Source: Streptosporangiaceae bacterium
GTDB taxonomy: Bacteria; Actinomycetota; Actinomycetes; Streptosporangiales; Streptosporangiaceae
Assembly (NCBI GenBank): GCA_035606435.1
Contig: DATNFM010000054.1
Span: 3,413-67,412, forward strand
Length of the DNA: 64,000 nt
Direction of reading: 5' to 3'
This document shows positions 31,245 through 61,079 of this stretch, in pieces. Positions within the stretch are counted from its first letter, which is position 1. Every line of letters starts with the position of its first letter. The translations under genes and the position numbers were made by a program. The notes under the pieces are model-generated. The model was not told where the DNA came from. It did no database searches and saw only the letters and a list, made by a program, of their open reading frames with translations.

Positions 31245-32810
31245 TCAGATCCAACTGTTAACCCACATTCGGCTCAGCCAGGCCCCGTAAGGAAGCACTC
31301 TGTCGGCAAGTACCGGATACAAGTAGATGAAGTTCGCCAGCACCAGGAGCAGGTAGCCACCCGATACCGAGGCCAGGACGATCCGGGACTGAAAGGTTTC
31401 GTAAAGCAGGCCAAGGACGAGGGCGGTGGCCATCACCAGGAACGGATCGAATACCACGGCGTAATAGAAGAACTCGGTACGGTGGTCGTGGTAGTAAAAC
31501 CAGATCCACGGCAGCCACCCGGCGGCGACCGCGGCCAGAACGGCGCCAACCTGCCAGTCCCGCCGCCAGATCCACCAGGCAACGCTGAAGAGCAGCGCGG
31601 CAGTGGCCATCCACCAGATCAGCGGGGTGCCGATGGCCAGTACTTCCTGCTCGGTCGAACGCGCCGTCCCGCCGCACAGGCGTCCGGCCGGAACGCAGTT
31701 GGCGTGGAACGAGATCGGCCGGGCGAGGATCGGCCAGCCGAGCGGATTCGTCTGGTAGGAGTGAGTGGTGCGCAGGCCCAGGCCGAAGCCGAGCATGGAT
31801 TTCTGATACTGCAGCCAGGCCAGGATCGTCCCGGCCGGATGACCGTCGTTGAAGGCGGCCCCGTTGCGGTCATAGCCGTAGCTGGTCGCGAACCAGCCGG
31901 TCCAGGACGCGACGTAGGCCGCCAACGGCGCAAGCCCAAACCAGACCGGCAGCCACGGGCCATCGCTGCGGGCCACTGCCCCGAGAGCCCGGAGGGACGA
32001 CCTCCCGGAACCCCCCGCGATGACAGGCCTGACCGATCCAGCCGCGCGCCGGGCGGCCCAATCCCAGGCCACCACCAGGATCGCGAGGACCGGAAGGTAC
32101 CATACACCATTCCATTTCGTCGCGCACGCGGCGCCCAGGCACACCCCGGCGAGCAGCAACGGCCAGCGGAGCCCCAGCCTCGCCGGCACATCCCGAGCCA
32201 GCGCATCGGCAAGCCGCGCTCTCGTCCGGTCGCGGTCCAAGACGATCAGGCCGAAGGCGGCCAGGATCCAGAACATGACGAAGATATCGAGGATCGCCGT
32301 CCGGCTGAGCACGAATTCGAGGCCATCAAGAGCCAGCAGCAGGCCGGCCACGCAGCCGAGCCAGGTGGACCCGGTCAGCCGTCGGGCGATCCGGGCCGTC
32401 ATCAAGATCGCCAGCGAGCCGACCAGCGCGGCCGCGAACCGCCAGCCGAATGGCGTCACGCCGAACAGCCATTCCCCGACCGCGATCATGATCTTGCCGA
32501 GCGGCGGGTGGGCCACGTACTCGGCCTGGGTACCGAGCAGAATGTGGGTGCCGCCGTGAGCTAGCACGGCATCGGAGTTGTGCACGTGGCTGATCTCAAC
32601 GCCGTGTTTCAAGATGCCGTAGGCATCGGGCACGTAGTAGGTCTCGTCGAAGACCACCCCGTGCGGCACGCTCAGCCGGTCGAACCGCAGGAAGCCACCG
32701 AACAATGTCACTAGCAGCGGACCGGCCCAGCCCTGCCAGTTGCGCGGCAAAGGCAAAACGAGCCGATCACGCAGATCAGGTTGTGCGGCAGCAGGAAGCG
32801 ATTCGATCAA
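31245..32810 (-). CDS. pmt: Dolichyl/polyprenyl-phosphate-mannose protein mannosyltransferase (GT39)
   Basis: VFDETYYVPDAYGILKHGVE signature loop; polytopic; 521 aa. Confidence 0.85.
   Translation of the reverse strand: MIESLPAAAQPDLRDRLVLPLPRNWQGWAGPLLVTLFGGFLRFDRLSVPHGVVFDETYYVPDAYGILKHGVEISHVHNSDAVLAHGGTHILLGTQAEYVAHPPLGKIMIAVGEWLFGVTPFGWRFAAALVGSLAILMTARIARRLTGSTWLGCVAGLLLALDGLEFVLSRTAILDIFVMFWILAAFGLIVLDRDRTRARLADALARDVPARLGLRWPLLLAGVCLGAACATKWNGVWYLPVLAILVVAWDWAARRAAGSVRPVIAGGSGRSSLRALGAVARSDGPWLPVWFGLAPLAAYVASWTGWFATSYGYDRNGAAFNDGHPAGTILAWLQYQKSMLGFGLGLRTTHSYQTNPLGWPILARPISFHANCVPAGRLCGGTARSTEQEVLAIGTPLIWWMATAALLFSVAWWIWRRDWQVGAVLAAVAAGWLPWIWFYYHDHRTEFFYYAVVFDPFLVMATALVLGLLYETFQSRIVLASVSGGYLLLVLANFIYLYPVLADRVLPYGAWLSRMWVNSWI
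31988..32017. repeat. Diverged copy of the G-run/C-run hairpin element inside pmt (CCCGGAGGGACGACCTCCCGGAACCCCCCG)
   Basis: Two substitutions relative to the 47247..47276 copy; translated in frame as GGSGRSSLR on the minus strand. Confidence 0.8.
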
Positions 32811-32816
32811 CTGATG

Positions 32817-33683
32817 CTAGCCGTGACGCGGCTGGTGCTTACCTGTGCTAGCCCGGCCCTGAACATCAACCTTTGTGATAGCCAGGAAGGCGACCAGGAT
32901 CGCGATCAATACGGTGAACCCGAGTGCGACCCGGCCATCGCCCCAGCCGAGTCCGCCCAGGCTGACCGGCTTGCCCAGCCAGTCGGCGACCGAGGCGCCG
33001 AGCGGCCTGGTGACCACGTAGGCCAACCAGAACGCGCCGATGGCGTTCCACCGGAAGAAGCGGAAGCCGATCGCCGGGATCATGATCATCACGGCGAACA
33101 GCACGATCGAGAAGTCGTAGCCGAGCCCGACGGTGACCGCGGTCAGGTCGCCGAGCGCCGTTCCCATCGCGAACGTCGCCACCACTGCGGTCCAGTAGAA
33201 AAGCTCGCGGCGGAGCGTGTCGATCGTGTGGATCGACAGCGTCCGCTCGGTCCGCTGCCAGGTCACGAACACTGCGGCCAGCGCGATCGCGTACAAGGCG
33301 GACGAGACGACGTACGGAACTCCGAATCCGACGTGCAGCACGTCGGCGGCCATCGTGCCGAACACGCCGACCATGACCACCGCGAGCCAGTAGGTCCAGG
33401 CCACATAGCGGCGGACCGACAATTGGAGCGCCAGTGCGGCCACGAAGCCCGCGAAGCCGATGCCGACGGCCAGGACCGGATTCATTGCGTGCACGAGGTA
33501 GTCGGAGGTCGACTCCCCCATCGCGGTGGACAGCCCTTTGATGATCCAGAAGTACGCGGTAATTTCCGGCACCCGCAGCGCGCCGCGAGCGGTCCACGCC
33601 GAAGGGCGGTCGCGATCGACTGTCGGCTGAACTCCGGCCGGAATCGGGGTCACCTGCTGACCGCGCCGCGCGTATTGATCCAT
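32817..33683 (-). CDS. Membrane protein (COG4705-like, uncharacterised)
   Basis: VPEITAYFWIIKGLSTAMGESTSDYLV N-terminal signature; multiple TM spans. Confidence 0.65.
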   Translation of the reverse strand: MDQYARRGQQVTPIPAGVQPTVDRDRPSAWTARGALRVPEITAYFWIIKGLSTAMGESTSDYLVHAMNPVLAVGIGFAGFVAALALQLSVRRYVAWTYWLAVVMVGVFGTMAADVLHVGFGVPYVVSSALYAIALAAVFVTWQRTERTLSIHTIDTLRRELFYWTAVVATFAMGTALGDLTAVTVGLGYDFSIVLFAVMIMIPAIGFRFFRWNAIGAFWLAYVVTRPLGASVADWLGKPVSLGGLGWGDGRVALGFTVLIAILVAFLAITKVDVQGRASTGKHQPRHG

Positions 33684-42394: not shown

Positions 42395-45289
42395 ATGACG
42401 GCCAACAGCGTCGAGTTCGGTGTTCTTGGACCAGTGCAGGCCCTGATCGTCGGCCGGTCGGCGGACTTAGGCGAGCGCAAACAGCGCCTGGTGCTGGCCA
42501 TGCTGGCGCTCGAGGTCAACAAGGTCATCCCGGTCAGCCGATTTGCCGACATCCTCTGGAGCGATTCACCGCCGAACAGCGCCCGCCGGATCATCCAGGC
42601 CCATGTCAGCAGGCTGCGGACGGCGCTGCACGAGGTCGGCGCGGCCGCCGACGGCACGGCGCTCGTCCGGCGCGGCTCTGGCTACCTGCTCGCCACCGAT
42701 CCGGTGAGCGTCGACGCGCACCGATTCCGCTTTTTAGTCGAAGACGCCGAACTTCGAACCGACGATCCTGGCAAGGTCAAGGTGCTGAGCGAGGCTCTGG
42801 CCTTGTGGCGCGGCCCGGCGCTCGCCGACGCGGCACCCGATGACCTGCGTCAGCAGCTGTGCGGCGGCCTCGAAGAGGCACGGCTCATGGCGGTGGAGAA
42901 CCTGCTGGAAACCAGGCTCCGGCTCGGTCATCACCTGCCGGTCCTCGACGAGCTGACCGATCTGGCCGCGCTGCATCCGTACCGGCCGAGGATCACGCGG
43001 TGCCTGATGCTGGCCTTGTACCGGGCCGGCCGGACGGCCGATGCCCTGCGCAGCTTCGAGGTCCTCCGCGACCGGCTGAGGCGAGAACTCGGGCTTGACC
43101 CGCCGGCCGAGCTGACCGAGCTGCACGTCGCCATTTTGCGGGCCGATCCCGGGCTGTCGCACGGCCAGGTGAACCTGGCCGATCCGGCCCCGGCTCAGCT
43201 CCCGGCCGATATCGCCGATTTCGTCGGCCGGGACACCGAACTGGCCGCGCTCGGCCGATTCACCGAAGCCCACCCGCTACACCCCCCGCCCGCCACCCAC
43301 ACCGCCCGGGCCAGCACCGTCATCATCACGGGCGGGGCCGGGGTCGGCAAGACCGCGCTCGCGGTGCACTGGGCTCACCTGGTAGCGGACGACTTTCCTG
43401 ACGGCCAGCTGTACGTCGACCTCCGGGGCTATTCAGGCACCGCCCCGGTCACGACGCTCGACGCACTGATCTCCTTGCTGCATGGCCTAGGCGTGCCGAT
43501 GGCACGGATTCCGGCCGATGAGAGGCAGGCGGCCGCACTGTACCGATCCGAGATGGCCGGCCGGCGAATGATCGTCGTGCTCGACAACGCCCGCAGCGAG
43601 CAGCCCGTCCGGCCGTTGCTGCCGGGCCGATCCAAGTCCGTGACGCTGGTGACCAGCCGGACCGGGCTGACCGGGCTGACCGCCCGGGAGGGCGCGGCCC
43701 GTATCTGCCTGGACCCGCTCAGCACCGACGAGGCGCTGGCTCTGCTGGCGGGCATGATCGGCGCGGTCCGGATCCGCCGCGAGACCGAGCCCGCCGCGGA
43801 ATTGGCCCGGCTGTGCGCCGGACTGCCGCTGGCGCTTCGCATCGCGGCGGCGAGGTTGCTGGCGCTTCCCCACACTCAGATCAAGGAGTACGTGAAGGAG
43901 ATCGCCGACGAGGACGCGTTCGCCTCGCTCCAGGTCGACGGTGACGATTCGGCTAGTGTCTGGACCGCGTTCGACCTTTCTTACCTGGCGCTTGACCCGT
44001 CGTCCAGGCGAGTGTTCCGGCTGCTCGGCGTGATCGGCAGCGGGAACCTGTCGGTGCACGCGATCGCGGCCATGAACGGGGCCACGGCCGCTCACGTCAG
44101 GCACGCGCTCAGCCGGCTGGCCGATGCCCACCTGGTCGAGCAGCATTCTGGCGCCCGGTTCGGCCCGCACGACCTGCTCCGGCGCTACGCGATGGTCAAG
44201 AGCAAGGACGAGGACACCACCCCGGATCGGCAGGCCGCCTTGCTGCGCCTGCTCCGCTGGTACCTGCACGGCGCGGACCAGGCGACCCGGCTCTTCAGTC
44301 CCTTCGCGCTGCGGCAGTTGCCGCCGGTCAGCCCCGCGGGCCAGAAGCTGGAGTTCGCGGGGATCGACGAGGCGCTGGCCTGGCTTGAAAGCGAGCAGGC
44401 CCACATGGTGGAGGCTCTCGTGCGGGCGGCCGACGAGGAGGATGACTCGATCTGCGATCTGGCCGTCCAGCTCGCCCGGCGGCTGCACTCGTTCCTGTTC
44501 AGGCGCGGCCACCTGGCCAGTGATGTCCAGGTCAGCCAGGCGGCCTTGAACGCCGCGGTACGCAGGCACGACCCGGGCGCCGAGGCCTGGGCCTGCATCT
44601 CACTCGGTGCGACCAACGCGCTGCTCGGGCGCGATGACCAGGCCCGGCCCTTGTTCCACCGGGCACTCAAGATCGCCAGGGCCACCACCGACACCTCCCT
44701 GCTGGCGAACTGCATCAGCAACGCGGCCGATGTCTGGTGGCGGGCCGGCGAGATTGACAAGGTCGAAGCGGCGCTGCGGGAAGAGATAGACCTGCGAGTC
44801 GATCTCGACGACGACTACGGCCTGGCGTTCTGCGAGCTCAACCTCGGCGAGCTGTATCGCGGTAAGGCGCTGTACGAGCAGTCTCGCAGCGCCTACGAAA
44901 GATCCATGCGCAAGCTGCGCGCCGTCGGCGACCGGTACGGCGAGTCGCTGGCCCTGCACGGCCTCGGCTGCCTGGAAATGCGGCAGGGACGGCTCGACCA
45001 GGCGGCCGACTCGCTTAACGGCGCGACGGTCATTCTCCGTGAGGTCAAGAACCGGTCCGCGCTCGGCTTCGTTCTGGTCGACCTCGGCCAGGCCTACCGG
45101 CGCCAAGGACAGAGCGGGCAGGCGATGAGCAGCCTTTACGAAGGACTGCGGCTGTGCCGGGAGCTTGGCATGCGCCGCCGGGAGGCCGAATGCCTGCAGG
45201 AGCTGAGCGTCACCCTTGATGAGATCATTCCTGAGCAGGCCGACAGTTACCGGCAGCAGTCGATGGCGATCCTGGGGGAACTGAAGTAA
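42395..45289 (+). CDS. SARP/AfsR-family regulator (OmpR-type wHTH + BTAD + NB-ARC + TPR)
   Basis: N-terminal FGVLGPVQA...RIIQAHVSRLRTAL; BTAD (ALALWRGPALAD); P-loop GGAGVGKTALA; C-terminal TPR-like repeats. Confidence 0.9.
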   Translation: MTANSVEFGVLGPVQALIVGRSADLGERKQRLVLAMLALEVNKVIPVSRFADILWSDSPPNSARRIIQAHVSRLRTALHEVGAAADGTALVRRGSGYLLATDPVSVDAHRFRFLVEDAELRTDDPGKVKVLSEALALWRGPALADAAPDDLRQQLCGGLEEARLMAVENLLETRLRLGHHLPVLDELTDLAALHPYRPRITRCLMLALYRAGRTADALRSFEVLRDRLRRELGLDPPAELTELHVAILRADPGLSHGQVNLADPAPAQLPADIADFVGRDTELAALGRFTEAHPLHPPPATHTARASTVIITGGAGVGKTALAVHWAHLVADDFPDGQLYVDLRGYSGTAPVTTLDALISLLHGLGVPMARIPADERQAAALYRSEMAGRRMIVVLDNARSEQPVRPLLPGRSKSVTLVTSRTGLTGLTAREGAARICLDPLSTDEALALLAGMIGAVRIRRETEPAAELARLCAGLPLALRIAAARLLALPHTQIKEYVKEIADEDAFASLQVDGDDSASVWTAFDLSYLALDPSSRRVFRLLGVIGSGNLSVHAIAAMNGATAAHVRHALSRLADAHLVEQHSGARFGPHDLLRRYAMVKSKDEDTTPDRQAALLRLLRWYLHGADQATRLFSPFALRQLPPVSPAGQKLEFAGIDEALAWLESEQAHMVEALVRAADEEDDSICDLAVQLARRLHSFLFRRGHLASDVQVSQAALNAAVRRHDPGAEAWACISLGATNALLGRDDQARPLFHRALKIARATTDTSLLANCISNAADVWWRAGEIDKVEAALREEIDLRVDLDDDYGLAFCELNLGELYRGKALYEQSRSAYERSMRKLRAVGDRYGESLALHGLGCLEMRQGRLDQAADSLNGATVILREVKNRSALGFVLVDLGQAYRRQGQSGQAMSSLYEGLRLCRELGMRRREAECLQELSVTLDEIIPEQADSYRQQSMAILGELK

Positions 45290-46589
45290 GCCGCCCGGCG
45301 ACATCGGCGACCGCCGCGACATCGGCGACCGCCGCGCCAGGCAGGTTGGCCGCTACCCAGCCCTCGCGGACGAGCGGCCTGGTCCGGGAACTGGCCAGAG
45401 CTCCGCTGGGCACATCGCTGGACAGCACAGTTCCGCCGGCGGTGTAGGCACCGTCGCCGACCGACATCGGGCCGATCATGATCGTGCCCGCCCCGATGAA
45501 GACGTGGTCGCCGATCTCGACCCTGTGCTTAGCCTGGCCGTCGAAGATGGCCGTGCCCGAGAGCCCCGCGATGTTGCAGCCCTTGCCGATGTCGGCGCTC
45601 ATCAGGCCGGCCACGTGCGGGATCTGGGTGTCGTCGCCGACGACCGAGTTGCTGACTTCGACGAACGACCCGGCCCTGGTCCTGGCGCCGAGCCGGGTGC
45701 CGGAGCGAAGCCAGGTGAAGGGCCCGATCCTGGCGTTGTCACCGATCGTCACGTCCTCGCAGACCGCGTACCTGACCACGCAATCGTCACCGGCCATCGT
45801 GTCGATCATCGTGGTGACCGGGCCGATGCTGGCGCCCGAGCCGATCACGGTACAGCCGGCCAGGTCGGTGTGCGGGCGGATCCGCGCTCCCCGGCCGATC
45901 TGGACGCTCGCATCGATTCTGGTCGTCGCCGGGTCCTCGATGACGACACCGCGACGCTGCCAGTCGACGGCGATGCGCTGGTACAGCGCCACCTCGGCCT
46001 GCTGTCGCTCGGCCAGGTCATCGACGCGCAGGGACTCGACCTGACCGGCGTCGATCGCGGTCACCCGCGCGCTGGGGTCACCCGCGCAGACCACGGCGGC
46101 GAGCGTGCACGCGGCCTGCCGCTGCGACCACCACCACTGCGGACCGCGCGAACGGATCACCGCTACGCCGAACTCACCGTCGTTCAGCGCCTCGATGGCC
46201 CGCCGGATGCTGGCCGGCTGCAGCAGCGGATTCAGGCACGACAGCGTCACCGTCAGCCCCGGCCACTGCGCGAGGCCGTCCCGGCCCGCCGAGATCGCCG
46301 GGCGCAGCCCGCGCCGGGCGCAGGCCCGGACGCTGACCGCCGCCGCTGCCCGTCCGCTGAAGCCGACCGCGTCGGGCCCGAGCTCGGCCACCGTGTCCAG
46401 CAGCCATTCCACCGCCGGCCGCCCGCACAGCGGAGCGCTCCAGCAGTCGCACGGCGGCGGGCAGATCCTGGCCGGCTCGTCGGTGGCCAGAACGACCGCG
46501 AGCCCCCCGCCTGGCCGGCCCGGGTGGTGGGCGGGGGGTGTAGCGGGTGGGACCCCCCGGAATCCCCCGTGGGCGCGGGCCTCAGGCAT
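45225..46589 (-). CDS. GlmU-like protein: intact hexapeptide-repeat acetyltransferase domain, degenerate N-terminal nucleotidyltransferase-like domain
   Basis: The C-terminal half is a classic LbH repeat (IGDNARIGPFTWLRSG...VGDDTQIPHV...IGDHVFIGAGT). The N-terminus lacks GxGTR. ATG 46589 overlaps the permease stop. Confidence 0.7.
   Translation of the reverse strand: MPEARAHGGFRGVPPATPPAHHPGRPGGGLAVVLATDEPARICPPPCDCWSAPLCGRPAVEWLLDTVAELGPDAVGFSGRAAAAVSVRACARRGLRPAISAGRDGLAQWPGLTVTLSCLNPLLQPASIRRAIEALNDGEFGVAVIRSRGPQWWWSQRQAACTLAAVVCAGDPSARVTAIDAGQVESLRVDDLAERQQAEVALYQRIAVDWQRRGVVIEDPATTRIDASVQIGRGARIRPHTDLAGCTVIGSGASIGPVTTMIDTMAGDDCVVRYAVCEDVTIGDNARIGPFTWLRSGTRLGARTRAGSFVEVSNSVVGDDTQIPHVAGLMSADIGKGCNIAGLSGTAIFDGQAKHRVEIGDHVFIGAGTIMIGPMSVGDGAYTAGGTVLSSDVPSGALASSRTRPLVREGWVAANLPGAAVADVAAVADVAGRLTSVPPGSPSTAAGNCRPAQE
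46526..46569. repeat. Variant-B G/C-run element (GGTGGGCGGGGGGTGTAGCGGGTGGGACCCCCCGGAATCCCCCG)
   Basis: Close match to 61018..61060; translated on the minus strand as the N-terminus of the GlmU-like ORF. Confidence 0.75.
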
Positions 46590-47682
46590 CGTCCCACCGG
46601 AACAACCGGATCGCGATGAGCGCGATCACCAGCGCGAACCCAAGCAGCACGCCCAGTTGCGGCAGCACCGTCACCGGTCCGTCGCCCCGGGCCAGGACAT
46701 CGAGCACGGCATCGTTGAGGTGGCGCAGCGGGAGCACCTGGGAGATCGACTGAACCCACGACGGCACATCGTTGATCGGAATGAACGCACCGGACAGGAA
46801 TGCCATCGGGATCACGATCAGGTTGGCCAGCGCGCTCGCGGCCTCGACAGACTTCGTCAGCGCCCCGGCCAGCAGCCCGATCGACAAGAACGCCAGAGTC
46901 CCGGCCAGCACCAGCGGAATCGCCATCCACCAGGCTCCGGAAAGCTTCAGGTGGAAGGCCAGCACGGCGACCACGACGAACAGCACCGTCTGGGCCAGCG
47001 CGATGCCCAGGCTGACCAGGATCCGCGCGCCGATGACGGACCGCACGCTGACCGGGCTGAGCGTCAGCCGGCGCATCAGCTTGCGCTGCCGCCAGACGAT
47101 CAGCGTCGAGGCGGCCGCGAACGTCGCCCCGGTCGCGATCGCCCAGCCGAGGATGCCGGGGGTCAGGTACTGGATCTCCTTGAGCGACTTGTCGTCCACC
47201 TGGCTCGTCGACAGCGCCACCCGGGGCGCTTGACCGGCAGTGCTGACCCGGGGGGACGACCCCCCGGAACCCCCCGCCGCGGCCAAGTTAGAGGCATCGA
47301 CCAGGTACTGGAACACGCTGCTTACCGCGCCGGCCGACGATGGCGACGCACCGGAGTCGTAGATGACGACGCCGGTGCCGCGCTGGACCACCGCCGCCGC
47401 CTCGTTGCCGTTGCGGACATCGGCCAGGGCCGCGTGCAGGTCATGGGACCTGGTGATCGCCAGGACCTGGTCCACCTTCGCCTTGCCGTGGGCCGGCAGG
47501 CCGTCATACACCGCGACCGGACCGACGAGCACCACGTTCGAGCGCGGGTTCTTGGCCCCGCCGAGCAGCCCGCCGAGCAGGAACAGGAAGATCAGCGGGA
47601 ACACGATCGTGAAGAACAGCGCCGCGCGATCACGCAGGTAGCCGCGCATCAGCGCCCCGGAGAGCGTCAGCAGGCTGGTCAC
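46582..47682 (-). CDS. ABC-2 type transporter permease
   Basis: 366 aa with a large extracytoplasmic loop and C-terminal TM bundle; start overlaps the ATPase stop by 4 nt. Confidence 0.8.
   Translation of the reverse strand: MTSLLTLSGALMRGYLRDRAALFFTIVFPLIFLFLLGGLLGGAKNPRSNVVLVGPVAVYDGLPAHGKAKVDQVLAITRSHDLHAALADVRNGNEAAAVVQRGTGVVIYDSGASPSSAGAVSSVFQYLVDASNLAAAGGSGGSSPRVSTAGQAPRVALSTSQVDDKSLKEIQYLTPGILGWAIATGATFAAASTLIVWRQRKLMRRLTLSPVSVRSVIGARILVSLGIALAQTVLFVVVAVLAFHLKLSGAWWMAIPLVLAGTLAFLSIGLLAGALTKSVEAASALANLIVIPMAFLSGAFIPINDVPSWVQSISQVLPLRHLNDAVLDVLARGDGPVTVLPQLGVLLGFALVIALIAIRLFRWDDA
47244..47276. repeat. G-run/C-run hairpin element TGACCCGGGGGGACGACCCCCCGGAACCCCCCG
   Basis: 33/33 identical to 54501..54533; in frame in the permease loop as GGSGGSSPR. 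Confidence 0.9.
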
Positions 47683-49444: not shown

Positions 49445-49564
49445 AAGGCCGAGCGTAGGTACGGATCGGCCGCAGTGGAATGGGCCGCTGGCGACCGCAG
49501 CATCACCACAACAAAAGCGCAGCAACGGCTAGTTACATTGCGATCCGAGGAGCTTGTGCTGGCA

Positions 49565-49606: not shown

Positions 49607-49616
49607 GGGGCGGCCA

Positions 49617-50417: not shown

Positions 50418-51520
50418 CCAACCTGCTGCTCGTCCCGTTTCCGCCCGCCGGGCATACGAAGCCGATGGAGGCGCTGGCCGGTCAATTACGCGCCGACGGG
50501 CACGCGGTCACGATCTTCGCCGAGACCGCGACAACCCGCTGGGGCATGCGACGGCCGGTGACCCCGCGGATGCACGCGTCCTACGACGCGGCGGCGCTGT
50601 TCCGGCACATGTTCGCCGGGAACGTCGCCGACATGGCCCGCGACGTCGTCGACCTGGCCGGTGCGTGCGGGGCCGAGCTGATCGTGACCGATGTGCTAAT
50701 GCCGGGCGGCGGGCTCGGGGCCGAACTGGCCAGACTGCCCTGGGTGTCGCTGGCCTGCACGCCGATCCCTGAGCTCGACACCTACCGGTACTTCTTGCCT
50801 CCCGAGGCAGGCGCCAGTTATGAGCCCCGCTCGACGCGGCTGGAGCTGGGGCTGCCGGCCGACGATGACCGCAACCTGCTCGCCCGTACCTCGGACCTGC
50901 TTCACCTGATCCCGACCACGCCGCGGTTCGCCGGCTTCCCGCAACTGCCCCCCGAGGTCGCGCTGACCGGCCCCTTCAACGCGATCCCGACCGCCTCACC
51001 AGCAAACGACGGCCGTCCGACGGTCACGGTGACCACGAGCAGCAACCCGATGGGACAGTTCGCCCGGATCGAGGATCGCTACCTCAAGGCCGCAGTTAAG
51101 GCGTTGACGAGCCTGGACATGACCGCCCTCATGGATCACGACGCCCCTCACTCCAAGCTCTTCCGGCAAAGTGACGCGGTAATCACCCACGGAGGCTGGG
51201 GCACTGTGTCCCGCGCGCTGCTGCTTGGCTTGCCGCTCGTCCTAGTGCCATTCGGCGCCGACCAGCCCTACATCGCCGGTCGTTGCGCCGATTTGGGAGC
51301 CGGGATCGTACTGCCAGCGCAGACCGTGACCGATGCCGAGCTTCGTGACGCCATCGGCGCGGTCATAGAAGAACCCAGCTATCGCAAGGCGGCCGCCGAG
51401 CTAGCCGCCGAGTTGCGGGAGGCCGAGCCACTATCGGTGGCTAGCTCGATGATCACATCCGTCTCCGCGGTGCCGGCCAAGGGGGACGACCCCCTATCAA
51501 CCCCCGCTTCAAGAAGGTGA
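50414..51520 (+). CDS. GT1 (MGT/UDP-glycosyltransferase-type) glycosyltransferase
   Basis: C-terminal donor motif ITHGGWGTVSRALLLGLPLVLVPFGADQ; ATGA overlap with the upstream gene. Confidence 0.85.
   Translation: MTNLLLVPFPPAGHTKPMEALAGQLRADGHAVTIFAETATTRWGMRRPVTPRMHASYDAAALFRHMFAGNVADMARDVVDLAGACGAELIVTDVLMPGGGLGAELARLPWVSLACTPIPELDTYRYFLPPEAGASYEPRSTRLELGLPADDDRNLLARTSDLLHLIPTTPRFAGFPQLPPEVALTGPFNAIPTASPANDGRPTVTVTTSSNPMGQFARIEDRYLKAAVKALTSLDMTALMDHDAPHSKLFRQSDAVITHGGWGTVSRALLLGLPLVLVPFGADQPYIAGRCADLGAGIVLPAQTVTDAELRDAIGAVIEEPSYRKAAAELAAELREAEPLSVASSMITSVSAVPAKGDDPLSTPASRR
51481..51506. repeat. Short-form hairpin element GGGGGACGACCCCCTATCAACCCCCG
   Basis: G5-ACGA-C5 then a C5 run; encodes the GT1 C-terminal tail KGDDPLSTPA. 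Confidence 0.75.
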
Positions 51521-53253: not shown

Positions 53254-53281
53254 GGCCAGATCGCAGGAAGGGAGCACTCAG

Positions 53282-53599: not shown

Positions 53600-53608
53600 G
53601 GGCTGGTC

Positions 53609-54646
53609 GTGAAGGCGCTCAGCATCCACCTGACCGACGTATGCAATAGCAAGTGCACGTTCTGCATTGTCGACGCGCCGTACATGAAGCAGGACACGAT
53701 CATGCGACGACGGGTGTCGAGGTTTCTCGCCGAGCACGCGGGTCAGGGCTACGAGGCGGTCAGCCTGCATGGCGGTGAGGCCACGGTCCGGCCGGACTTC
53801 CTTGAGATCCTGGACGAGATCGCCGAACGGGGCTACCCGACCGTGTTCTTGATGACCAACGGCCGCAAGTTCGCCCGGATGAACTACGCCCAGACCGTGG
53901 TCGGCAAGGGAGTCAGCGAGTTCATCATTTCGCTGCACGGCGCCACGGCCGCGACCCAGGACGGGATCAGCCTCGCGCGCGGATCGTTCGACCAGGCGAT
54001 CCAGGGCATCAAGAACGTCAAGGCACTGGGCGCGACGGTGCGCACGAACTCCGTCGTCTGCAAGGACAACTACACCGAGCTGCCGGCCATCATCGACCTC
54101 TGCCTGGATCTCGGAGCCGACCAGGTGAGCATCTCGGCGCTGCATACCTCCGGCACGGCGTTGCGCAACTTCGACAAGGTCACGCCGCGGTACGAGGTGA
54201 TCCGGCCGTACGTGGTCGAGGCGACCGACCGGGCGGTTCGCCGGGGCACCCGGCCGTACCTGGAGGGCTTCCCTTACTGCGCGGTGCCGCCGGAGTACGA
54301 GGAGTACCTGGTCGACTGGGAGGAACACAAGTACAAGGTCCTGTACCGCAGCTTCGTCATGGACGACTACGGCGACCACATGGACGACTTCGCCCGGGTG
54401 AAGGACGAGCGCTGCGACTCGTGCTTCTTCAACGACGTGTGCGGCGGCGTCTACAAGGAGTACGCCGAGTTCATCGGCTGGGACGAGTTCAAGCCAGTGC
54501 TGACCCGGGGGGACGACCCCCCGGAACCCCCCGAAGGTCGGGACGCCTTAGGCGCCGCCTTCCCTCCTCGCTCTGGCGCTTCGCTTTGTCGCTCGTCAGT
54601 CCAGGCGGCACCGCGCCCCGACGGTCCGGTGGTGACTGTTCAATGA
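53609..54646 (+). CDS. Radical SAM enzyme with a C-terminal auxiliary-cluster (SPASM/twitch-like) Cys motif, paralog 1
   Basis: CNSKCTFC (Cx3Cx2C) at residues 12-19; FPYC and CDSCFFNDVCGG. The last ~45 residues are encoded by the repeat element and its flank. Confidence 0.85.
   Translation: MKALSIHLTDVCNSKCTFCIVDAPYMKQDTIMRRRVSRFLAEHAGQGYEAVSLHGGEATVRPDFLEILDEIAERGYPTVFLMTNGRKFARMNYAQTVVGKGVSEFIISLHGATAATQDGISLARGSFDQAIQGIKNVKALGATVRTNSVVCKDNYTELPAIIDLCLDLGADQVSISALHTSGTALRNFDKVTPRYEVIRPYVVEATDRAVRRGTRPYLEGFPYCAVPPEYEEYLVDWEEHKYKVLYRSFVMDDYGDHMDDFARVKDERCDSCFFNDVCGGVYKEYAEFIGWDEFKPVLTRGDDPPEPPEGRDALGAAFPPRSGASLCRSSVQAAPRPDGPVVTVQ
54501..54619. repeat. Long structured repeat, left copy: hairpin element plus GGCGCC-TAA-GGCGCC stem region
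   Basis: The reverse complement matches 55331..55434, apart from an internal ~12-nt longer, diverged segment. Confidence 0.85.
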
Positions 54647-55320: not shown

Positions 55321-56747
55321 GTGCCCGGGAGGGGCGCGGTGCCGCCTGGACTGACGAGCGCAGTTTGCGAGGAGGGAAGGCGGCGCCTAAGGCGCCCCTC
55401 CCTTCGGGGGGTTCCGGGGGGTCGTCCCCCCGGGCCAGCACAGCTAAGACCGTTCTCTTCATCGTCACCAGCTTCTGGGCCTTTGGTGAGTTGGCGATCG
55501 CGCTTGAGTTCGCCGAGCGGATGACCGGCACCGGATTCCGGCCGCTGTTCCTAATTCCGCCCACGCACCGGGCGCAGGTCGCCGCGACCGGGTTTGAATA
55601 CCAGGTCATGATCCCGGGAGCCGGAAAGATCAACCGGATTCAGCTCGCGGACATCGGCCATGTGCACCAGCCCGCGCTGGTCGTGCTCGCCGACTTCCTG
55701 AACTACGACTTCTGCGAGCGTCACTACGGGCTGCGCCGCGGCGATCTCGCCGTGTTCGGCTGCCCGATCGGTACCTTCGACGACTTCTCGTGGGGCCGGC
55801 CGGGCGCCTGGCTGGACACCTACGGATTCCAGGCGAAGGTCGAGGGCGAGATCACGCTCGACGGGCTGTCGTTCCGGTTGCGACCGTGTCCCCTCAATGA
55901 CCCGATAGCAGAGCACAATCCGCTCGATGAAATCGGTGAAGCCCAGATCTACCCGTACCCGATGCTCGAGAACGTCACCGACGTTCCCGACGACCATCGG
56001 GCCACCGTCCGGAGCGAACTCGGCCTGGCTAAGGACCGGCCGGTGGTGCTGGTGACCGGCGCGACGTGGCAGCGGACACACGAGGCGTATCCCAGGGTCA
56101 CGGCGTTCGTGAATGCCTGCAACTCGATGCTGGAACGGCTGCTGGCGAACCTGCTTCCGCACGCGGACGTGCTGGCCGTCGGGCCGCAACTGGTATTCGG
56201 TGACCAGGTGCCGGCTGGATTCCACCCGCTCGGATCGGTTCCGCCGGAGCGGTTCCAGCGGCTGATCCAGGCCGTCGACCTGCACATCTCGAACAACATC
56301 ATCTCGGTGAGCCTGCACCGGCTGGCGCTGCGCGGGATCCCGTCGGTCGTGATGATCAACTCCCTGCACAAGCGGTCCGGGCGACTCCGCTGGGAAATGC
56401 CCTCGGGGGGCTCCGGGGGGCCGTCCCCCCTGGCCAGCTCAGCGGCCCCAGGGCTGTCTGGGTTCGCCCAGGGAGTCATCGATGACCTCGACTACCTGTA
56501 TCCATACCGGATGTTCCCGGTCGGGTGGTACCACTTCCTGGACTCGTTGCTGGCCGGCAATCCGTTCAGCGACGTGATCACGCAGGTCGAGACGTTCGAC
56601 GAGGAGGCGGCGCTGGCCGCGATCCTCCCGTTGCTTGCCGCTGGTCCGGAGCGCGACCGGCTGGCAACTGCCCGCGAGCAATACCTCGAGGCGCTGCGCA
56701 AGCTGCCCGAGGTCGGTTCGATCCTGAATGAGGTGGCGGCGCTATGA
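55317..56747 (+). CDS. Divergent GT-B-like protein, paralog A (repeat-encoded N-terminal extension)
   Basis: Paralogous to 56744..58024 and 61092..62351. The first ~40 codons are the repeat element. A second element copy is in frame at 56401. Confidence 0.7.
   Translation: MSAREGRGAAWTDERSLRGGKAAPKAPLPSGGSGGSSPRASTAKTVLFIVTSFWAFGELAIALEFAERMTGTGFRPLFLIPPTHRAQVAATGFEYQVMIPGAGKINRIQLADIGHVHQPALVVLADFLNYDFCERHYGLRRGDLAVFGCPIGTFDDFSWGRPGAWLDTYGFQAKVEGEITLDGLSFRLRPCPLNDPIAEHNPLDEIGEAQIYPYPMLENVTDVPDDHRATVRSELGLAKDRPVVLVTGATWQRTHEAYPRVTAFVNACNSMLERLLANLLPHADVLAVGPQLVFGDQVPAGFHPLGSVPPERFQRLIQAVDLHISNNIISVSLHRLALRGIPSVVMINSLHKRSGRLRWEMPSGGSGGPSPLASSAAPGLSGFAQGVIDDLDYLYPYRMFPVGWYHFLDSLLAGNPFSDVITQVETFDEEAALAAILPLLAAGPERDRLATAREQYLEALRKLPEVGSILNEVAAL
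55331..55434. repeat. Long structured repeat, right copy (inverted relative to 54501..54619)
   Basis: GGGGCGCGGTGCCGCCTGGACTGACGAGCGCAGTTTGCGAGGAGGGAAGGCGGCGCCTAAGGCGCCCCTCCCTTCGGGGGGTTCCGGGGGGTCGTCCCCCCGGG. Confidence 0.9.
56401..56433. repeat. Hairpin element, reverse orientation variant (CCTCGGGGGGCTCCGGGGGGCCGTCCCCCCTGG)
   Basis: In frame as PSGGSGGPSPLA in GT-B-like paralog A. Confidence 0.8.
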
Positions 56748-58024
56748 AACTCCTGGTGCTAGCTCCAAGCCGGCGTTCGCGCGGGGATGCGATCATCGCC
56801 GCCGACCTGGCTCGATCGCTGCCGAGGTCGCGGTTTCAGGTCGCGTTCGCGGCGGCGCCTGAAGTCCTGTCCCAACTGCACGACCTGGGAATGCCGACGC
56901 TGCCGCTGACCGGCGCCACCCCGGCCGACAACCTAGCGATCCTGGATCAGATCGTCGCCGGCTTCAAGCCGGACTGCCTGGTCGCCGCCGACGCGTTCGA
57001 GCTGGAGCACACCACGAAGTGGTCGGGCCTGGCGATGGGCATGCTGCGCGAGCGCTACGGCCGGCCGGTCGCGAGCCTGGACCGGCTGGGCTGGCAGGCG
57101 GCCGGCTACAAGGCCGACATCTACGGCGGCGGCGCTGGCCAACTCAGTGAGCTGACCTTCCCGCCGCTGCTGGATGACTGCGACGTGCTGATCAGGCCGT
57201 GCCCGCCGCACCGGGCCGAGCCGGGTCCGGCTGGCGTTGTGGTGGCGCCGCTCGGGCTGTCCGGGCTGCGCGATGGAGGGCGAACGTCGGAGTCCGCCCG
57301 GGCGGACCATGCCTCTGGCAAGGAGGCGGAGACCACTCTGCCGCTGCTAGGGGGACGACCCCCTAGGACCCCCGACCAACCCGTAGTGTTTCTTTCCAAC
57401 TCAGCGTGGGAGTACCGCAACCGGACTCGGTCTCTGGCCGTGGCTGAGCTGATCGATGCGTTGCCGCGATTGATCCACAGTCATCTCGCCGCGCTGGGCC
57501 GGCGGCTGCGGGTGGTGCACGTCGGGGCGCGGCAGTGGCGGTTCCCGCTCGCCGACCAGATCGACTACCGGCACTTCAGCAAGCTGCCATACCAGATGTT
57601 CCACGAGAAGCTGGCGGCGGCGGACCTGTTCGTGACGACGAACGTGCTGTCGGTCACGCTCGCGCAAGCGGTGCTGTCCGGCGTCCCGGCGCTCGTCCTG
57701 GAGAACCACCAGACGCTCGGGGCATCCGAGTTGCCCGGCTGGGTTGGCGCGGCGGCCCCGCTGCTGCGTTCCGCGTATCCGTTCCGGGTCGCGCCGCTGG
57801 GCTGGCACGACTTCCTGGAGCCACTGCTGGCCGGGAACCCGTACGCCGACTGTTTCGCGAGCGCCGGGATCCTGGATCGGCAGGCGGTGCTCAGTGCGGT
57901 GAATGGGCTGCTGGACGACGAACCGGGTCGATCGCAGCTTAAGGAGCGTCAGCAGGGTTTCCGCGACGCGCTGGCCGGGCTCCCTCCGGTCGGCGAGGCC
58001 CTGGCGGCGGCGGTGCCTCGATGA
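56744..58024 (+). CDS. Divergent GT-B-like protein, paralog B
   Basis: MKLLVLAPS...GDAIIAADLARSLP N-terminus; C-terminal LFVTTNVLSVTLAQAVLSGVPALVL in place of the GT1 HGG..T donor motif. Confidence 0.7.
   Translation: MKLLVLAPSRRSRGDAIIAADLARSLPRSRFQVAFAAAPEVLSQLHDLGMPTLPLTGATPADNLAILDQIVAGFKPDCLVAADAFELEHTTKWSGLAMGMLRERYGRPVASLDRLGWQAAGYKADIYGGGAGQLSELTFPPLLDDCDVLIRPCPPHRAEPGPAGVVVAPLGLSGLRDGGRTSESARADHASGKEAETTLPLLGGRPPRTPDQPVVFLSNSAWEYRNRTRSLAVAELIDALPRLIHSHLAALGRRLRVVHVGARQWRFPLADQIDYRHFSKLPYQMFHEKLAAADLFVTTNVLSVTLAQAVLSGVPALVLENHQTLGASELPGWVGAAAPLLRSAYPFRVAPLGWHDFLEPLLAGNPYADCFASAGILDRQAVLSAVNGLLDDEPGRSQLKERQQGFRDALAGLPPVGEALAAAVPR
57350..57374. repeat. Short-form hairpin element GGGGGACGACCCCCTAGGACCCCCG (extended stem CTAGGGGG-ACGA-CCCCCTAG)
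   Basis: In frame as LGGRPPRTP in the interdomain region of paralog B. Confidence 0.8.
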
Positions 58025-59367
58025 CGGCCGTAAGCGAGGCGACTCGACCGCTGGCCGGCCGGCGCCGGATCGACCCGTCGACCGGGCGGGTGTTCTCCGC
58101 GAGCATGCGCAACGACTTCCTGACCCCGCGCGGTACCCCATACAAGTGGCAGGAACTGACGGCCAGCGTCGAGCGGACGGTGATCGGCGGCGGGGGGCCG
58201 ACCGTGGTGCCGGTGCGGTATGAATGGCAACGGGTGGACGCCCAGGTCGGCAATCCGGACGGGGCGCAGACGCGCCGGGAGTGGACGTTCGCCCGGGGGC
58301 AGAGCTTCACCTCGCTGCTGCTGCACACCGAACTGGACGGCGCCCTCGCGCCCATGCCGGACTTCGACGGGCCGACCTGCACCACGATGGACATCTCCTA
58401 TCCGGGGCTGCCGAAGTCGCCCGCGGTCGACTTGCTGCTGATGCTGAGCTGGGACGTCGTCACGTTCGAGATGATGGCGACGAACCTGATCACCACGCCG
58501 GAGCTACGCGAGGTGGGCGGCTGCACCAACCTGGAGCGGATCTCGGGAACCTGGGCCGAGCTCCGGTTCTCCGATCCCAGGTCGACCGCGGTCTTCAGGA
58601 ACGCGCGGGGGACGGCGCGGCACCTGGGGTACGGGCACGCCGACGGCCGGCCGACCCGGATCTACACCTCGACGTGCTTGGACTGCCAGCTGGATGTTCG
58701 GTCCGGGCCGCTGGCTGAGCGGGGCCGTTCGTCGTACTGGCTGACGCTGCAGGTCGACGCCGAGAGCGCGGACCTGCTGTCGGCCGAGATGACCGAGATG
58801 ATCGTCGCCACGCTGACCGGTCCTGAAGCGAAAGCAGTTCCGGTCTGCAAGCGCCGGACCGTGCGGCTGTGGGCCGGGCTGGAGCCGAGCGGACTCGATC
58901 CGGCCGAGCCTTCCGCCTCCGGGACGGTCGCGGTCCAGCGGCACGACCCAGAGGTGCTCGCCGAGGCGATTAGGTTCGCCGGGCAGGTCGCCCAGTATCT
59001 GGCCTGGCAGGTCTCGTCGCTGGAGAACCTGCCGCAAGGGATGTCCGAGCTGGCCTTGATGGGATTCCGCAGCCTGGTGGGGGCGGACCTGGCCAGTACG
59101 TTTCTGCGGGTCAAGTCGCTGCAGACCGATCTGGAGGCGGCCGCTCGATCCTCTTCCGGGCAGGCCGCCCTGGCGCAGGCGCTGCCCGAGCACCGTCGGC
59201 GCCTTGAGGGGCTGCTCGCCTTCGGGCAGCTGGCGGCCGACGGGACCAACCGAGGCCTGGTTCTCGAAGAAGCCGACCGCAGGGCGACGCGCGCCCGCCT
59301 GCAGTCGGTCAGCAACGACCTCATCGCCCTGCTCGGGCTAGTCGAAAAACTGGAGCAACCACAATGA
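58021..59367 (+). CDS. Hypothetical protein (448 aa), no recognisable motif
   Basis: ATGA overlaps at both ends inside the operon; coding-like composition. Confidence 0.7.
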   Translation: MTAVSEATRPLAGRRRIDPSTGRVFSASMRNDFLTPRGTPYKWQELTASVERTVIGGGGPTVVPVRYEWQRVDAQVGNPDGAQTRREWTFARGQSFTSLLLHTELDGALAPMPDFDGPTCTTMDISYPGLPKSPAVDLLLMLSWDVVTFEMMATNLITTPELREVGGCTNLERISGTWAELRFSDPRSTAVFRNARGTARHLGYGHADGRPTRIYTSTCLDCQLDVRSGPLAERGRSSYWLTLQVDAESADLLSAEMTEMIVATLTGPEAKAVPVCKRRTVRLWAGLEPSGLDPAEPSASGTVAVQRHDPEVLAEAIRFAGQVAQYLAWQVSSLENLPQGMSELALMGFRSLVGADLASTFLRVKSLQTDLEAAARSSSGQAALAQALPEHRRRLEGLLAFGQLAADGTNRGLVLEEADRRATRARLQSVSNDLIALLGLVEKLEQPQ

Positions 59368-60323
59368 AGGCCCTGAGCGTCCATCTGACCGACATCTGCA
59401 ATAGCAAATGTTCCTTCTGCATCGTCGACTCGCCGCATATCAAGGAGGACTCGATCTCCCGTAAGCGGGTCTCCCGGTTCCTGCGGGAGAACGCGGACAA
59501 GGGTTACGAGGCCGTCAACATCCACGGCGGCGAAGCCACGATCCGCCGCGACTTCCTCGAGATCCTGGACGAGATCGGCGAGCTGGGCTACCCCACCGTG
59601 TATCTGCAGACCAATGGCCGCAAGCTCTCCCACATGAAATACGCCCGCACCGTCGTGGACAAGGGCGTCAGCTTGTTCATCGTGTCGATGCACGGCGCGA
59701 CCGGCCTGACCCAGGACCGGATCAGCAAGTCGCTCGGTTCGTTCGAGCAGGCGGTCAAGGGCATCAAGAACGTCAGCGAGCTGGGCGCGAATATCAGGAC
59801 CAACACGGTGGCGTGCAAGGACAACTTCACCGAACTGCCGGAGATCGCCGATCTGTGCGTGGATCTCGGGGCCGATCACGTGAACATCTCCGCGCTGCAT
59901 ACGGCGGGGACCGCGTTCCGCAACTTCTGGGAGGTGACGCCTCGGTACGACGAGATCCAGCCGTACGTGTTCGAGGCCGTGGACCGGGTTGCCCGCCGGG
60001 AGCGGGCGATCACCTTGGAAGGCTTCCCCTACTGCGCGATCCCGGGCTACGAGAAGTACATGATCGACTGGTCAGAGAACCAGTTCAAGATGCTGTACCG
60101 GGCGTTCGTGTTCGAGGACTACGAGAACTACATGGACTCGAACTCGCGGGTCAAGGACGCTCGGTGCTCGGGGTGCGCCTTTGACGAGGTGTGCGGCGGG
60201 GTCTATAAGGAGTACGCCGAGATGATCGGCTGGGACGAATTCCAGCCCGTCCCCGCGGGAGATTCCGAGGGCTCGTCCCCACGGGCTGGCACAGCTCCGA
60301 CCCCGACTACCTTGACGGCGTAA
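59364..60323 (+). CDS. Radical SAM enzyme with a C-terminal auxiliary-cluster Cys motif, paralog 2
   Basis: CNSKCSFC; FPYC; CSGCAFDEVCGG. 43 of the first 60 residues are identical to paralog 1 by eye. Confidence 0.85.
   Translation: MKALSVHLTDICNSKCSFCIVDSPHIKEDSISRKRVSRFLRENADKGYEAVNIHGGEATIRRDFLEILDEIGELGYPTVYLQTNGRKLSHMKYARTVVDKGVSLFIVSMHGATGLTQDRISKSLGSFEQAVKGIKNVSELGANIRTNTVACKDNFTELPEIADLCVDLGADHVNISALHTAGTAFRNFWEVTPRYDEIQPYVFEAVDRVARRERAITLEGFPYCAIPGYEKYMIDWSENQFKMLYRAFVFEDYENYMDSNSRVKDARCSGCAFDEVCGGVYKEYAEMIGWDEFQPVPAGDSEGSSPRAGTAPTPTTLTA
60254..60285. repeat. Decayed reverse-orientation hairpin element (CGCGGGAGATTCCGAGGGCTCGTCCCCACGGG)
   Basis: Aligns with CGGGGGGTTCCGGGGGGTCGTCCCCCCGGG; encodes GDSEGSSPRAG in the C-terminal tail of rSAM paralog 2. 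Confidence 0.55.
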
Positions 60324-60326
60324 GTC

Positions 60327-61079
60327 GTGCGGCTTATTACGCCGGCCGATGATGAGCTGTACGGACTGGCCAGCGCGGCGGGGAAGCTAGGCCGGGCCGA
60401 TCGGCTGCTGGCCATGCTCGAACGGGAACACCTGGCGCGGCCGGGCGATGGCGAAGCGGCCGGGCGGTACGCGCTGGCGATGATGGCGGTGCTGCCTAGC
60501 GTCAACTTCGAACTGGCCGCGCACGCACCGTTCACCGCCGCGATCGACGCGTGGGGGCGGGTCCTCGCCATCGAGCCTGATCACTGGTTCGCCCGGTACG
60601 GCCGGGCCCGGCTGCAGACGTTGACCCCGGGCGGCTACGGCCTCGATTCCGCTGGTGCGGCCGATGAGCTCGCGTCGGCGCGGGCGGATCTGGATTTCCT
60701 GATCGACCTGCAGTCCGGGCTCGGGTACCAGCCGTACTTCGTCAGCACCCATGCGCTGGCGACGGTGCTGGACGGGCTTTGCGTGGAGTCGGCCCGGGTC
60801 GGCCGGCCTTCGCTGGCCGATGAGCTGGCGGCGTGCCCTCGGGTCAATGTGCGCCTGCCCGCTCTGGGCGCGGTGCTGTGCGAGCCGCTGGTCACCTTGT
60901 ACGCGGGGTCGGCCGAACGGGAACGGCACGCGATCGGCGAGGTTGCCGCCGCGTTGTACGGGGACCAGGCCGCCGTCGCCGCGCTGCGTCGCTCCCTGCT
61001 TCAGTGCTGGCCCGGGAGGTGGGCGGGGGGTGAAGCGGGCGGGACCCCCCTGATCCCCCCGCAGCCGGCGCGGCGGTGA
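60327..61079 (+). CDS. Hypothetical protein, paralog of 54643..55320
   Basis: 250 aa, GTG start 3 nt after the rSAM stop; the C-terminal tail is encoded by the variant-B element. Confidence 0.7.
   Translation: MRLITPADDELYGLASAAGKLGRADRLLAMLEREHLARPGDGEAAGRYALAMMAVLPSVNFELAAHAPFTAAIDAWGRVLAIEPDHWFARYGRARLQTLTPGGYGLDSAGAADELASARADLDFLIDLQSGLGYQPYFVSTHALATVLDGLCVESARVGRPSLADELAACPRVNVRLPALGAVLCEPLVTLYAGSAERERHAIGEVAAALYGDQAAVAALRRSLLQCWPGRWAGGEAGGTPLIPPQPARR
61018..61060. repeat. Variant-B G/C-run element (GGTGGGCGGGGGGTGAAGCGGGCGGGACCCCCCTGATCCCCCC)
   Basis: Matches 46526..46569; encodes WAGGEAGGTPLIPP. Confidence 0.75.

Follow-up and report, generated by a model that had tools for sequence, protein, structure and literature searches.

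Small palindromes that insert in frame into protein-coding genes unrelated to one another, where the encoded peptide is tolerated, are known as Rickettsia palindromic elements (RPEs; PMC10969869, reviewing Ogata et al.). Proteobacterial repetitive extragenic palindromes (REPs) are G/C-rich stem-loops of 20-40 bp, present in high copy number at co-directional or convergent, not divergent, intergenic sites; they overlap the ends of open reading frames (ORFs), lie in a minority of cases in frame within ORFs, recur at the same sites in homologous genes and assemble into mosaics, the bacterial interspersed mosaic elements (PMC3733652). Mycobacterial interspersed repetitive units (MIRUs) are located at start codons or stop-start junctions of mycobacterial operons, where translational coupling is kept with a -4 spacing (PMC12548453). 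We describe here a family of hairpin repeats with G- and C-runs, found in a 64,000-nt stretch of contig DATNFM010000054.1 of a Streptosporangiaceae bacterium (the window; G+C about 68%). The family is dispersed, polymorphic and constrained in its structure, and its surviving genic copies are frame-neutral. [quoted passage not shown] It extends selfish DNA inside genes, best documented in Rickettsia, to free-living, high-G+C, antibiotic-producing actinomycetes.

Hairpin copies in the window and empty sites in relatives

The basic unit, type A, is about 39 nt long and reads GTGCT(G/A)GC-CCGGGGGG-RCGA-CCCCCCGG-AA-CCCCCC-G, i.e. a G/C hairpin of 8-9 bp with a conserved RCGA loop, after which the C-run is repeated. 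Variant B has type-A ends with 24-26 additional nt between the arms (5' end GTGCTGGCCCGGG, 3' end GACCCCCC..CCCCCCG); at 46511-46571 the pattern is GCTGGCC..CCCGGG ... GACCCCCCGGAAYCCCCCG. In composites, the hairpin module is joined to a second palindromic module of about 75 nt (module 2). The copies at 54501 and 55403 are the heads of two such composites of 111-127 nt (54495-54621 and 55330-55444), which lie in opposite orientations with a complementarity of 95-100%.

With up to three mismatches, the core CCGGGGGGACGACCCCCCGG gives 10 strand-hits in the window, against 0.14 expected from dinucleotide-preserving shuffles of the same DNA (matches at 31989, 47248, 54505, 55414, 56413 and 60265), and the shorter core GGGGGWCGWCCCCC gives six against 0.19, adding 51481 and 57350. 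A sequence-only reading of this DNA had listed a set of hairpin copies and named a copy number no higher than G+C-rich composition would give as a refutation; a copy was present at every listed coordinate, and the core lies far above chance. Its inventory of type-A copies was also complete, in that an nhmmer profile built from 145 copies yielded no further one in the 64 kb. Its peptide readings (RGDDPPEPPE, KGDDPLSTP, GGRPPRTP, GGSGGSSPR, GGSGRSSLR and GGSGGPSPL) were reproduced when the translations were re-read. The identity of the copies at 47244 and 54501, given as 33 nt, in fact extends over all 39 nt (47238-47276 and 54495-54533). The proposed concentration in 45-62 kb stands for type A, with seven of the eight copies within 47.2-60.3 kb. 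There is also a third, partial variant-B copy at 43265-43309. The copies are as follows.

31979..32017, + strand: type-A short copy carrying two substitutions in its stem, within the - strand gene pmt, reading IAGGSGRSSLRALG
43265..43309, - strand: 5' half of a variant-B copy, within the + strand gene of the SARP/NB-ARC regulator; from repeat comparison and nhmmer
46511..46571, + strand: variant-B copy, a few codons after the hexapeptide-transferase ATG (gene on the - strand)
47238..47276, + strand: type-A copy of canonical form and 39 nt, within the - strand gene of the ABC-2 permease, adding the 13 residues AGGSGGSSPRVST
51468..51506, + strand: short form G5-ACGA-C5, last codons of GT1, reading PAKGDDPLSTP
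54495..54621, + strand: composite of hairpin module (54495-54533) and module 2 (54534-54621), extending rSAM-1 by 40 codons
55330..55444, - strand: inverted composite copy, two codons after the DUF6365-A ATG, adding 37 codons
56401..56441, - strand: short copy with ACGG loop, internal loop of DUF6365-A, reading GGSGGPSPL
57337..57384, + strand: short form, internal loop of DUF6365-B, 48 nt or 16 codons, reading LPLLGGRPPRTPDQP
60254..60292, - strand: decayed copy with three mismatches, C-terminal tail of rSAM-2, reading AGDSEGSSPRAGT
61003..61063, + strand: variant-B copy, C-terminal codons of the 60327-61079 gene; from repeat comparison and nhmmer
7411..7478, - strand: module 2 alone, 97% to 55333-55391, outside gene-like ORFs

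The last of these falls in 6069-7532, a region with no gene-like ORF in a frame screen based on G+C content at third codon positions (GC3), and is taken as intergenic.

Evidence on the nature of these copies comes from five syntenic contigs, three of them about 99% identical to the window (L122-L124) and two at 87-91% (L121, L120). The 39 nt in the ABC-2 permease gene are present in the window alone and the site is empty in all five contigs; correspondingly, the 15 nearest permease orthologues, including three whose DNA is about 99% identical, are 13 residues shorter exactly at AGGSGGSSPRVST. A permease identical to that of the window has been recorded from a Streptosporangiaceae metagenome-assembled genome. 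The window alone also carries the 111 nt at the N-terminus of DUF6365-A (empty in L123, L121 and L120) and the 48 nt in the loop of DUF6365-B (empty in the same three contigs and in the paralogue 61092-62351). The 27 nt at the C-terminus of GT1 are found in the window, L122 and L123, with empty sites in L120 and L121, and the 120 nt at the C-terminus of rSAM-1 are found in the window and L120, with empty sites in L123 and L121. At the hexapeptide-transferase gene, variant B is present in the window and L122-L124 and absent from L121, and L120 has a type-A-like copy with an ACAT loop. At 43265-43309, L120 lacks 18 nt and is diverged. Orthologues of Pmt at 84-91% identity lack the 12-residue insert of the window; one orthologue (P0124) has a longer insert in the same loop and another (P0131) two tandem forward copies in a different loop. 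Conservation of the encoded peptides in distant orthologues was thus not found for the ABC-2 permease and Pmt, and the comparison recovered empty sites for the GT1, rSAM-1, DUF6365-A N-terminal and DUF6365-B copies.

The net insertions, of 39, 36, 27, 48, 111 and 120 nt, are all multiples of three, and the copies are situated in loops or near ATGA junctions, in agreement with their in-frame placement at termini or likely loops in the sequence-only reading. Gain, loss or exchange of copies is seen between genomes with about 99% identity, which points to recent insertion, and the same protein loops have been struck independently in different relatives. The internal loop of DUF6365-A at 56401-56441 is an insertion hotspot with three different occupants: a short reverse copy in the window, a long composite in L120 and L121, and a different forward variant in L123. 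Clean pairs of filled and empty sites are hereby supplied for study. In-frame insertion of the RPE kind is seen in Pmt, the ABC-2 permease and two DUF6365 proteins of this locus, and elsewhere in MurD, NadE and a CoxL-like protein. Both RPEs and the hairpin elements are small palindromes and selfish DNA surviving in ORFs, a resemblance that is functional alone. Compared by length and composition, RPEs are about 100-150 bp, A+T-rich and confined to obligate intracellular alpha-proteobacteria, whereas the hairpin unit measures 39-42 nt, has G/C homopolymer runs and occurs in free-living high-G+C actinomycetes, mostly at gene ends; a kinship in sequence is not expected.

Gene context was established with Pfam, a plot of GC3 by frame and alignments of paralogues. 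Copies are internal in pmt, the ABC-2 permease, DUF6365-A and DUF6365-B; they lie a few codons from the C-terminus in GT1, rSAM-1, rSAM-2 and the 60327-61079 gene, and a few codons from the N-terminus in DUF6365-A and the hexapeptide transferase. The element is read in more than one frame and from either strand. The permease and Pmt inserts are each in a variable loop, extracytoplasmic in the former, and the alignment of the rSAM paralogues diverges exactly after GWDEF(K/Q)PV, i.e. at the decayed copy of rSAM-2. Several of the element-bearing gene ends are overlapping ATGA stop/start junctions at which the overlap is retained: the start region of the hexapeptide transferase overlaps the permease stop, the GT1 copy is directly 5' of the stop/start junction with the B12-rSAM gene, rSAM-1 is longer by 40 codons yet keeps its ATGA overlap with the next gene, and the ATG of DUF6365-A overlaps the upstream stop. 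The Pfam match of DUF6365-A starts only at residue 65, so that about its first 43 residues are element-encoded, and this N-terminal extension is probably translated, because translation and alignment revealed no alternative start codon between the element and the conserved first strand. Four or five window copies are MIRU-like in lying a few codons from ATGA overlaps that are kept. There is no sequence similarity to MIRUs, which carry their own small ORF overlapping the flanking stop and start codons, whereas the hairpin copies fuse into the flanking frame as N- or C-terminal extensions; the 40 codons of rSAM-1 and the 37 codons of DUF6365-A are such fusions, with no separate MIRU-type ORF, and copies are also found in internal loops.

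In relatives, the cluster holds further copies where other genes begin or end, e.g. at 9067-9105 of L121 and 7278-7302 of L120 (locus coordinates). The ABC ATPase of L121 has an N-terminus 17 residues longer, and there is another extra copy at the junction of the NTP-transferase and GT1 genes. The cluster is a shared playground for the element across strains.

The repeat family in other genomes

A search by pattern in genomes, one for each species, yielded at least 119 stretches, and a loop-agnostic scan of metagenomes at least 120. Among the genome matches listed, most belong to Actinomadura, Trebonia, Nocardiopsis and Streptosporangiaceae, with some in Acidimicrobiia and Propionibacteriaceae; it is a widespread family in Streptosporangiales, in Acidimicrobiia and in soil metagenomes, and copies occur in the complete isolate chromosomes of Actinomadura madurae ATCC 19425 (CP083237), A. 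nitritigenes CA-153451 (CP191984) and Spirillospora sp. CA-255316 (CP192047). Of 123 copies retrieved with the loop-agnostic pattern, 94% have an RCGA loop (ACGA 61%, GCGA 33%). The stem lengthens by co-varying pairs outside the fixed G5/C5 core, with 0.90, 0.73 and 0.59 of the extension pairs matched against shuffle maxima of 0.85, 0.61 and 0.56, and the lengths of the G-run and of both C-runs co-vary as well (r about 0.5-0.6); the alternative pairing with the second C-run, suggested in the sequence-only reading, is hypothetical. Variant B was also found in L121 and in a further locus (L235), and relatives of module 2 in five unrelated genomes (L005, L011, L030, L052 and L062). Module 2 folds as a long imperfect palindrome (z-score -3.4 on one strand) and is devoid of the ACGR loop. 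A hammerhead-like motif in it, CUGACGAG, was considered and rejected, there being no match to a hammerhead model in either of two Rfam scans and no GAAA core found by eye.

The ends of the short unit (GTGCTGGCC... and ...AACCCCCCG) are, by inspection, not inverted repeats of each other, and neither are those of the composite (GTGCTGG... and ...GGCACCGCGCCCC). This distinguishes the element from classical MITEs, whose terminal inverted repeats are 15-30 bp long and match those of a parent insertion sequence. The element resembles REPs in several respects: the unit is 39 nt with a stem of 8-9 bp, there are eight copies in 64 kb in addition to the stretches found elsewhere, composites are mosaic and sites recur. 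The gene contexts, as assigned by a crude coding/intergenic classifier that uses GC3 periodicity only, are 43 co-directional, nine convergent and none divergent. The hairpin palindrome differs from REPs in having no terminal GTAG or CGTC tag (CGTC appears solely inside the loop on the reverse strand, in GTCGTC, and the consensus of the 5' flank is GTGCT(G/A)GC), in its host, which is an actinomycete rather than a proteobacterium, and in the downstream C-run repeat that forms part of the unit.

By the same classifier, copies with coding signal on both sides number 13 of 113 in genomes and 23 of 106 in metagenomes, and most others are at gene ends. The proposal that the element is tolerated only where it adds linkers consequently fits the window and not the family, in which most copies are at or outside gene ends and about 11-22% are intragenic. 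Orientation is unbiased (24 sense, 19 antisense). Tandem arrays are common, one of them following immediately on a tRNA gene; their period is divisible by three in 24 of 38 cases (p = 1.6e-4), and 39 and 42 nt are the modes. Pooled over all copies read, the forward orientation gives PGGRPP 12 times, GDDPP seven times and GGTTP once, the first two making up 19 of 20, and the reverse orientation gives GGSGGSS in 17 of 25 cases, GGFRGV in five and RGVPGGRPP in three; this bias in frame use is due in part to a TGA or TAG in some variants of the 5' flank, which shuts one frame. The encoded peptides, mostly GGSGGSSPR, PGGRPP or GDDPPEPP, are flexible and of low complexity.

Several copies reside in core genes. 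MurD of A. nitritigenes (L101, 5347-7933) has a 13-residue insert of the GGSGGSGGSSPQE type, which is a gap relative to PDB 3lk7 and lies between the P-loop region and the ELSS(Y/F)QL motif; a tryptic peptide spanning it would end in GGSGGSGGSSPQEEYAEPYDVLAVELSSYQLHW... The linker between the nitrilase and synthetase parts of NadE carries RGDDPPEPP (L015), and a CoxL-like molybdopterin protein carries WGDDPPEPP (L060). Natural linkers of the GGS type thereby mark insertion-tolerant positions in MurD, Pmt and ABC-2 permeases. For annotation, the elements lengthen ORFs at both ends, make strain-specific indels in biosynthetic gene clusters and bring three G/C homopolymer runs per copy.

In Acidimicrobiia, copies, either solitary or arrayed in tandem with 42-nt units, begin about 15 nt or less from the 3' ends of tRNA genes (L013, about 7900-7973; L118, 1-180). 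A metagenome copy at about 2940-2990 of L165 is followed by 13 or more G and then 13 or more C, long runs that the homopolymer runs of the copy probably seeded as an artefact of assembly or sequencing.

Mobility and rival explanations

We consider it likely that the copies belong to a non-autonomous, REP-like family of mobile repeats; the idea of a miniature palindromic element inserted in frame, put forward in the sequence-only reading, agrees with the empty sites in relatives and with the insertion of whole codons. The hairpin, probably as single-stranded or cruciform DNA, would be recognised by a trans-acting enzyme whose gene lies elsewhere in the genome, and which by analogy with REPs and their associated tyrosine transposases (RAYTs, whose genes REPs often flank) may be a hairpin-specific transposase of the HUH/Y1 type. 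It can be hypothesised that purifying selection then filters the insertions, the survivors being in-frame copies in loops, at termini and at gene junctions, and that a unit of 13-14 codons with almost no stop codons would help insertions to pass this selection. The cluster at 45-62 kb may have gathered its copies through tolerant genes, local re-insertion or both. A more ambitious proposal, which we advance only tentatively, is that this is an undescribed family across several actinobacterial orders, with a stop-free unit of 39 or 42 nt adapted to the interiors and ends of coding sequences, a quick turnover and a mimicry of the guanidine-II stem-loop. If this were true, turnover would be fast, strains about 99% identical differing by several insertions, and the family would be a continuing source of Gly/Ser/Pro or Asp/Pro linkers, even in the essential murD, nadE and pmt. 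The conserved RCGA hairpin offers a concrete handle for tracing the mobilising enzyme.

Several observations weigh against the mobile-repeat explanation. Pfam searches found no transposase and no RAYT among the genes of the window, and all-against-all clustering of 1,448 gene-like ORFs from about 245 loci gave generic families alone, with neither a RAYT nor any other protein family enriched beside the copies. Terminal inverted repeats are absent, and a consistent target-site duplication of the kind that flanks MITE insertions was not seen, four pairs of filled and empty sites having no duplication in common and one site showing GACCA at both ends of the insert. The junctions carry small local sequence changes, and the empty sites are loosely similar to the 5' end of the element (GCCTGG, GTGTGGCC, CCAGTC), which could equally mean recombination or microhomology-driven copying. 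The filled rSAM-1 allele is common to the window and the 87%-identical L120, not to the 99%-identical L123, so part of the presence/absence pattern reflects allele exchange and not transposition. The classification of gene contexts is coarse, as stated above, and translation of the inserts is presumed from their open frames. Lastly, a DUF222-HNH gene flanked by inverted copies was rejected as an autonomous partner, since four of five homologous loci have no hairpin nearby and the remaining one has copies only 350-580 nt downstream.

That candidate had come from an Acidimicrobiia metagenome-assembled genome (L038, 5186-6698), in which a DUF222 and HNH endonuclease gene of a REP13E12-like family lies between inverted, hairpin-containing repeats of about 55 nt, with a partial second unit downstream of the bracketed gene; the link between HNH gene and hairpin looks incidental. 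The 225-aa gene at 54643-55320, between the two inverted composites of the window, was likewise considered as a REPtron-like transposase and rejected: it has no Pfam match, L121 and L123 both have it without the elements, and the duplicated cassette contains a paralogue. The composite had no blastn match in PLSDB or INPHARED, and no plasmid or phage origin was seen.

Some of these observations would suit copying that needs no dedicated transposase, through gene conversion or recombination, or through template switching induced by the hairpin, seeded at microhomologies resembling the 5' end. The empty sites resemble the GTGCTGGCC end, target-site duplications are missing and the junctions have small substitutions; the rSAM-1 allele shared with the distant L120, and not with the close L123, comes with a common 24-nt flank; the C-runs co-vary in length as if templated; tandem arrays are frequent; and no associated transposase was found in the window or in the about 245 loci. 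For the copying step this is a live alternative, yet it appears unlikely to us. Identical 39-nt units are found in unrelated genes without flanking homology, the conserved loop and covarying stem in many genera are more easily explained by recognition by a protein, and the lack of a linked transposase is normal for REPs and MITEs. A different objection is that the peptides are ordinary conserved low-complexity linkers, similar in DNA because of G+C-rich codon usage, or that the copies are artefacts of metagenome assembly. A G+C content of about 68% does favour Gly, Pro, Arg and Ala codons and long open frames. The shuffles that gave 0.14 matches against 10 observed preserved dinucleotides, the same DNA is read in several frames and on both strands, and close orthologues have no such segments, the empty-site alignments already contradicting the linker argument; the copies in the three complete isolate chromosomes speak against the artefact. 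We accordingly give this objection next to no weight.

A riboswitch must also be weighed. The guanidine-II riboswitch, situated in leaders of guanidine-related genes, consists of two stem-loops with identical conserved ACGR tetraloops and a linker between them (PMC5558903), and the hairpins could in principle be ACGR-capped G/C stems of this kind, kissing pairwise upon guanidine binding and regulating the operon. The likeness in stem and ACGA/ACGG tetraloop is real, and the loop sequence is conserved across genera. Against the Rfam family RF01068 (mini-ykkC; gathering score 32 bits), positions 54505-54550 of the window score 25.3 bits in a permissive scan, and tandem copies elsewhere exceed the threshold, with scores of 38.1 (L067), 34.8 (L044), 33.8 (L027) and 33.8 (L118). 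We nonetheless judge this function very improbable. The window copies are single hairpins in both orientations and, with 25.3 and 16 bits, score below the threshold; the gathering scan of the window gave no hit, and the permissive scan gave this sub-threshold match and noise. A third of the loop-agnostic copies (33%) have GCGA and not ACGR, the ratio of 24 sense to 19 antisense copies indicates no preference relative to transcription, and five of the eight window copies would yield UCGU loops in mRNA. Moreover, the copies lie within coding sequence or where genes end on the 3' side and not in the 5' leaders of guanidine carboxylase or SugE-type genes, and they are polymorphic among 99%-identical strains. 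The hairpin is a structural look-alike of the guanidine-II stem-loop, not a member of RF01068, and probably gives rise to false riboswitch calls.

The tandem pairs above the RF01068 threshold are at 7511-7626 of L067, 769-824 of L044, 1306-1364 of L027 and 39-97 of L118 (32.4-38.1 bits), and some of those that score are in apparently coding tandem repeats or straight after tRNA genes. Rfam calls tandem copies guanidine-II riboswitches, and RF01068 hits in Actinomycetota may include copies of the hairpin family. If the hairpin is a true mimic, it could contaminate riboswitch annotation or be raw material for such riboswitches.

The gene cluster and other repeats of the window

The element-rich region 45225-63580 is a biosynthetic gene cluster with a SARP regulator, a hexapeptide transferase, an ABC-2 exporter, glycosyltransferases, an NTP-transferase, a B12-binding radical SAM enzyme, two paralogous radical SAM genes, three DUF6365 genes and a P450. 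It also contains a small acidic precursor-like ORF at 53.2-53.6 kb, whose orthologues have a weak Frankia_peptide Pfam hit. A cassette of an rSAM gene, a 225-250-aa gene of unknown function and a DUF6365 gene occurs twice (53.6-58.0 kb and 59.4-62.4 kb), with 66% identity between the two rSAM proteins and 50% within the DUF6365 pair 56744-58021 and 61092-62348.

Two other classes of repeats were observed in the window. At 1071-1224 and 12234-12387, outside gene-like ORFs in the GC3 frame screen, there are arrays of 20-nt units sharing GTGGTAAG, in which tandem repeats face inverted copies (e.g. ATCCGTGGTAAGACGGCGGG, 2.6 copies, 100% match); they resemble multi-site operator arrays or iteron-like ones. 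Tandem arrays with units of 15 or 18 nt, such as CCGCACCCGATCAGC, GCGGATCGACACCCG and CCAGCCGACCCAGCTACC, are located at 306-425, 12557-12605, 13175-13250, 15989-16055, 22388-22848 and 23078-23137. Their periods are whole codons, so that any of these arrays inside genes would encode short repeated peptides.

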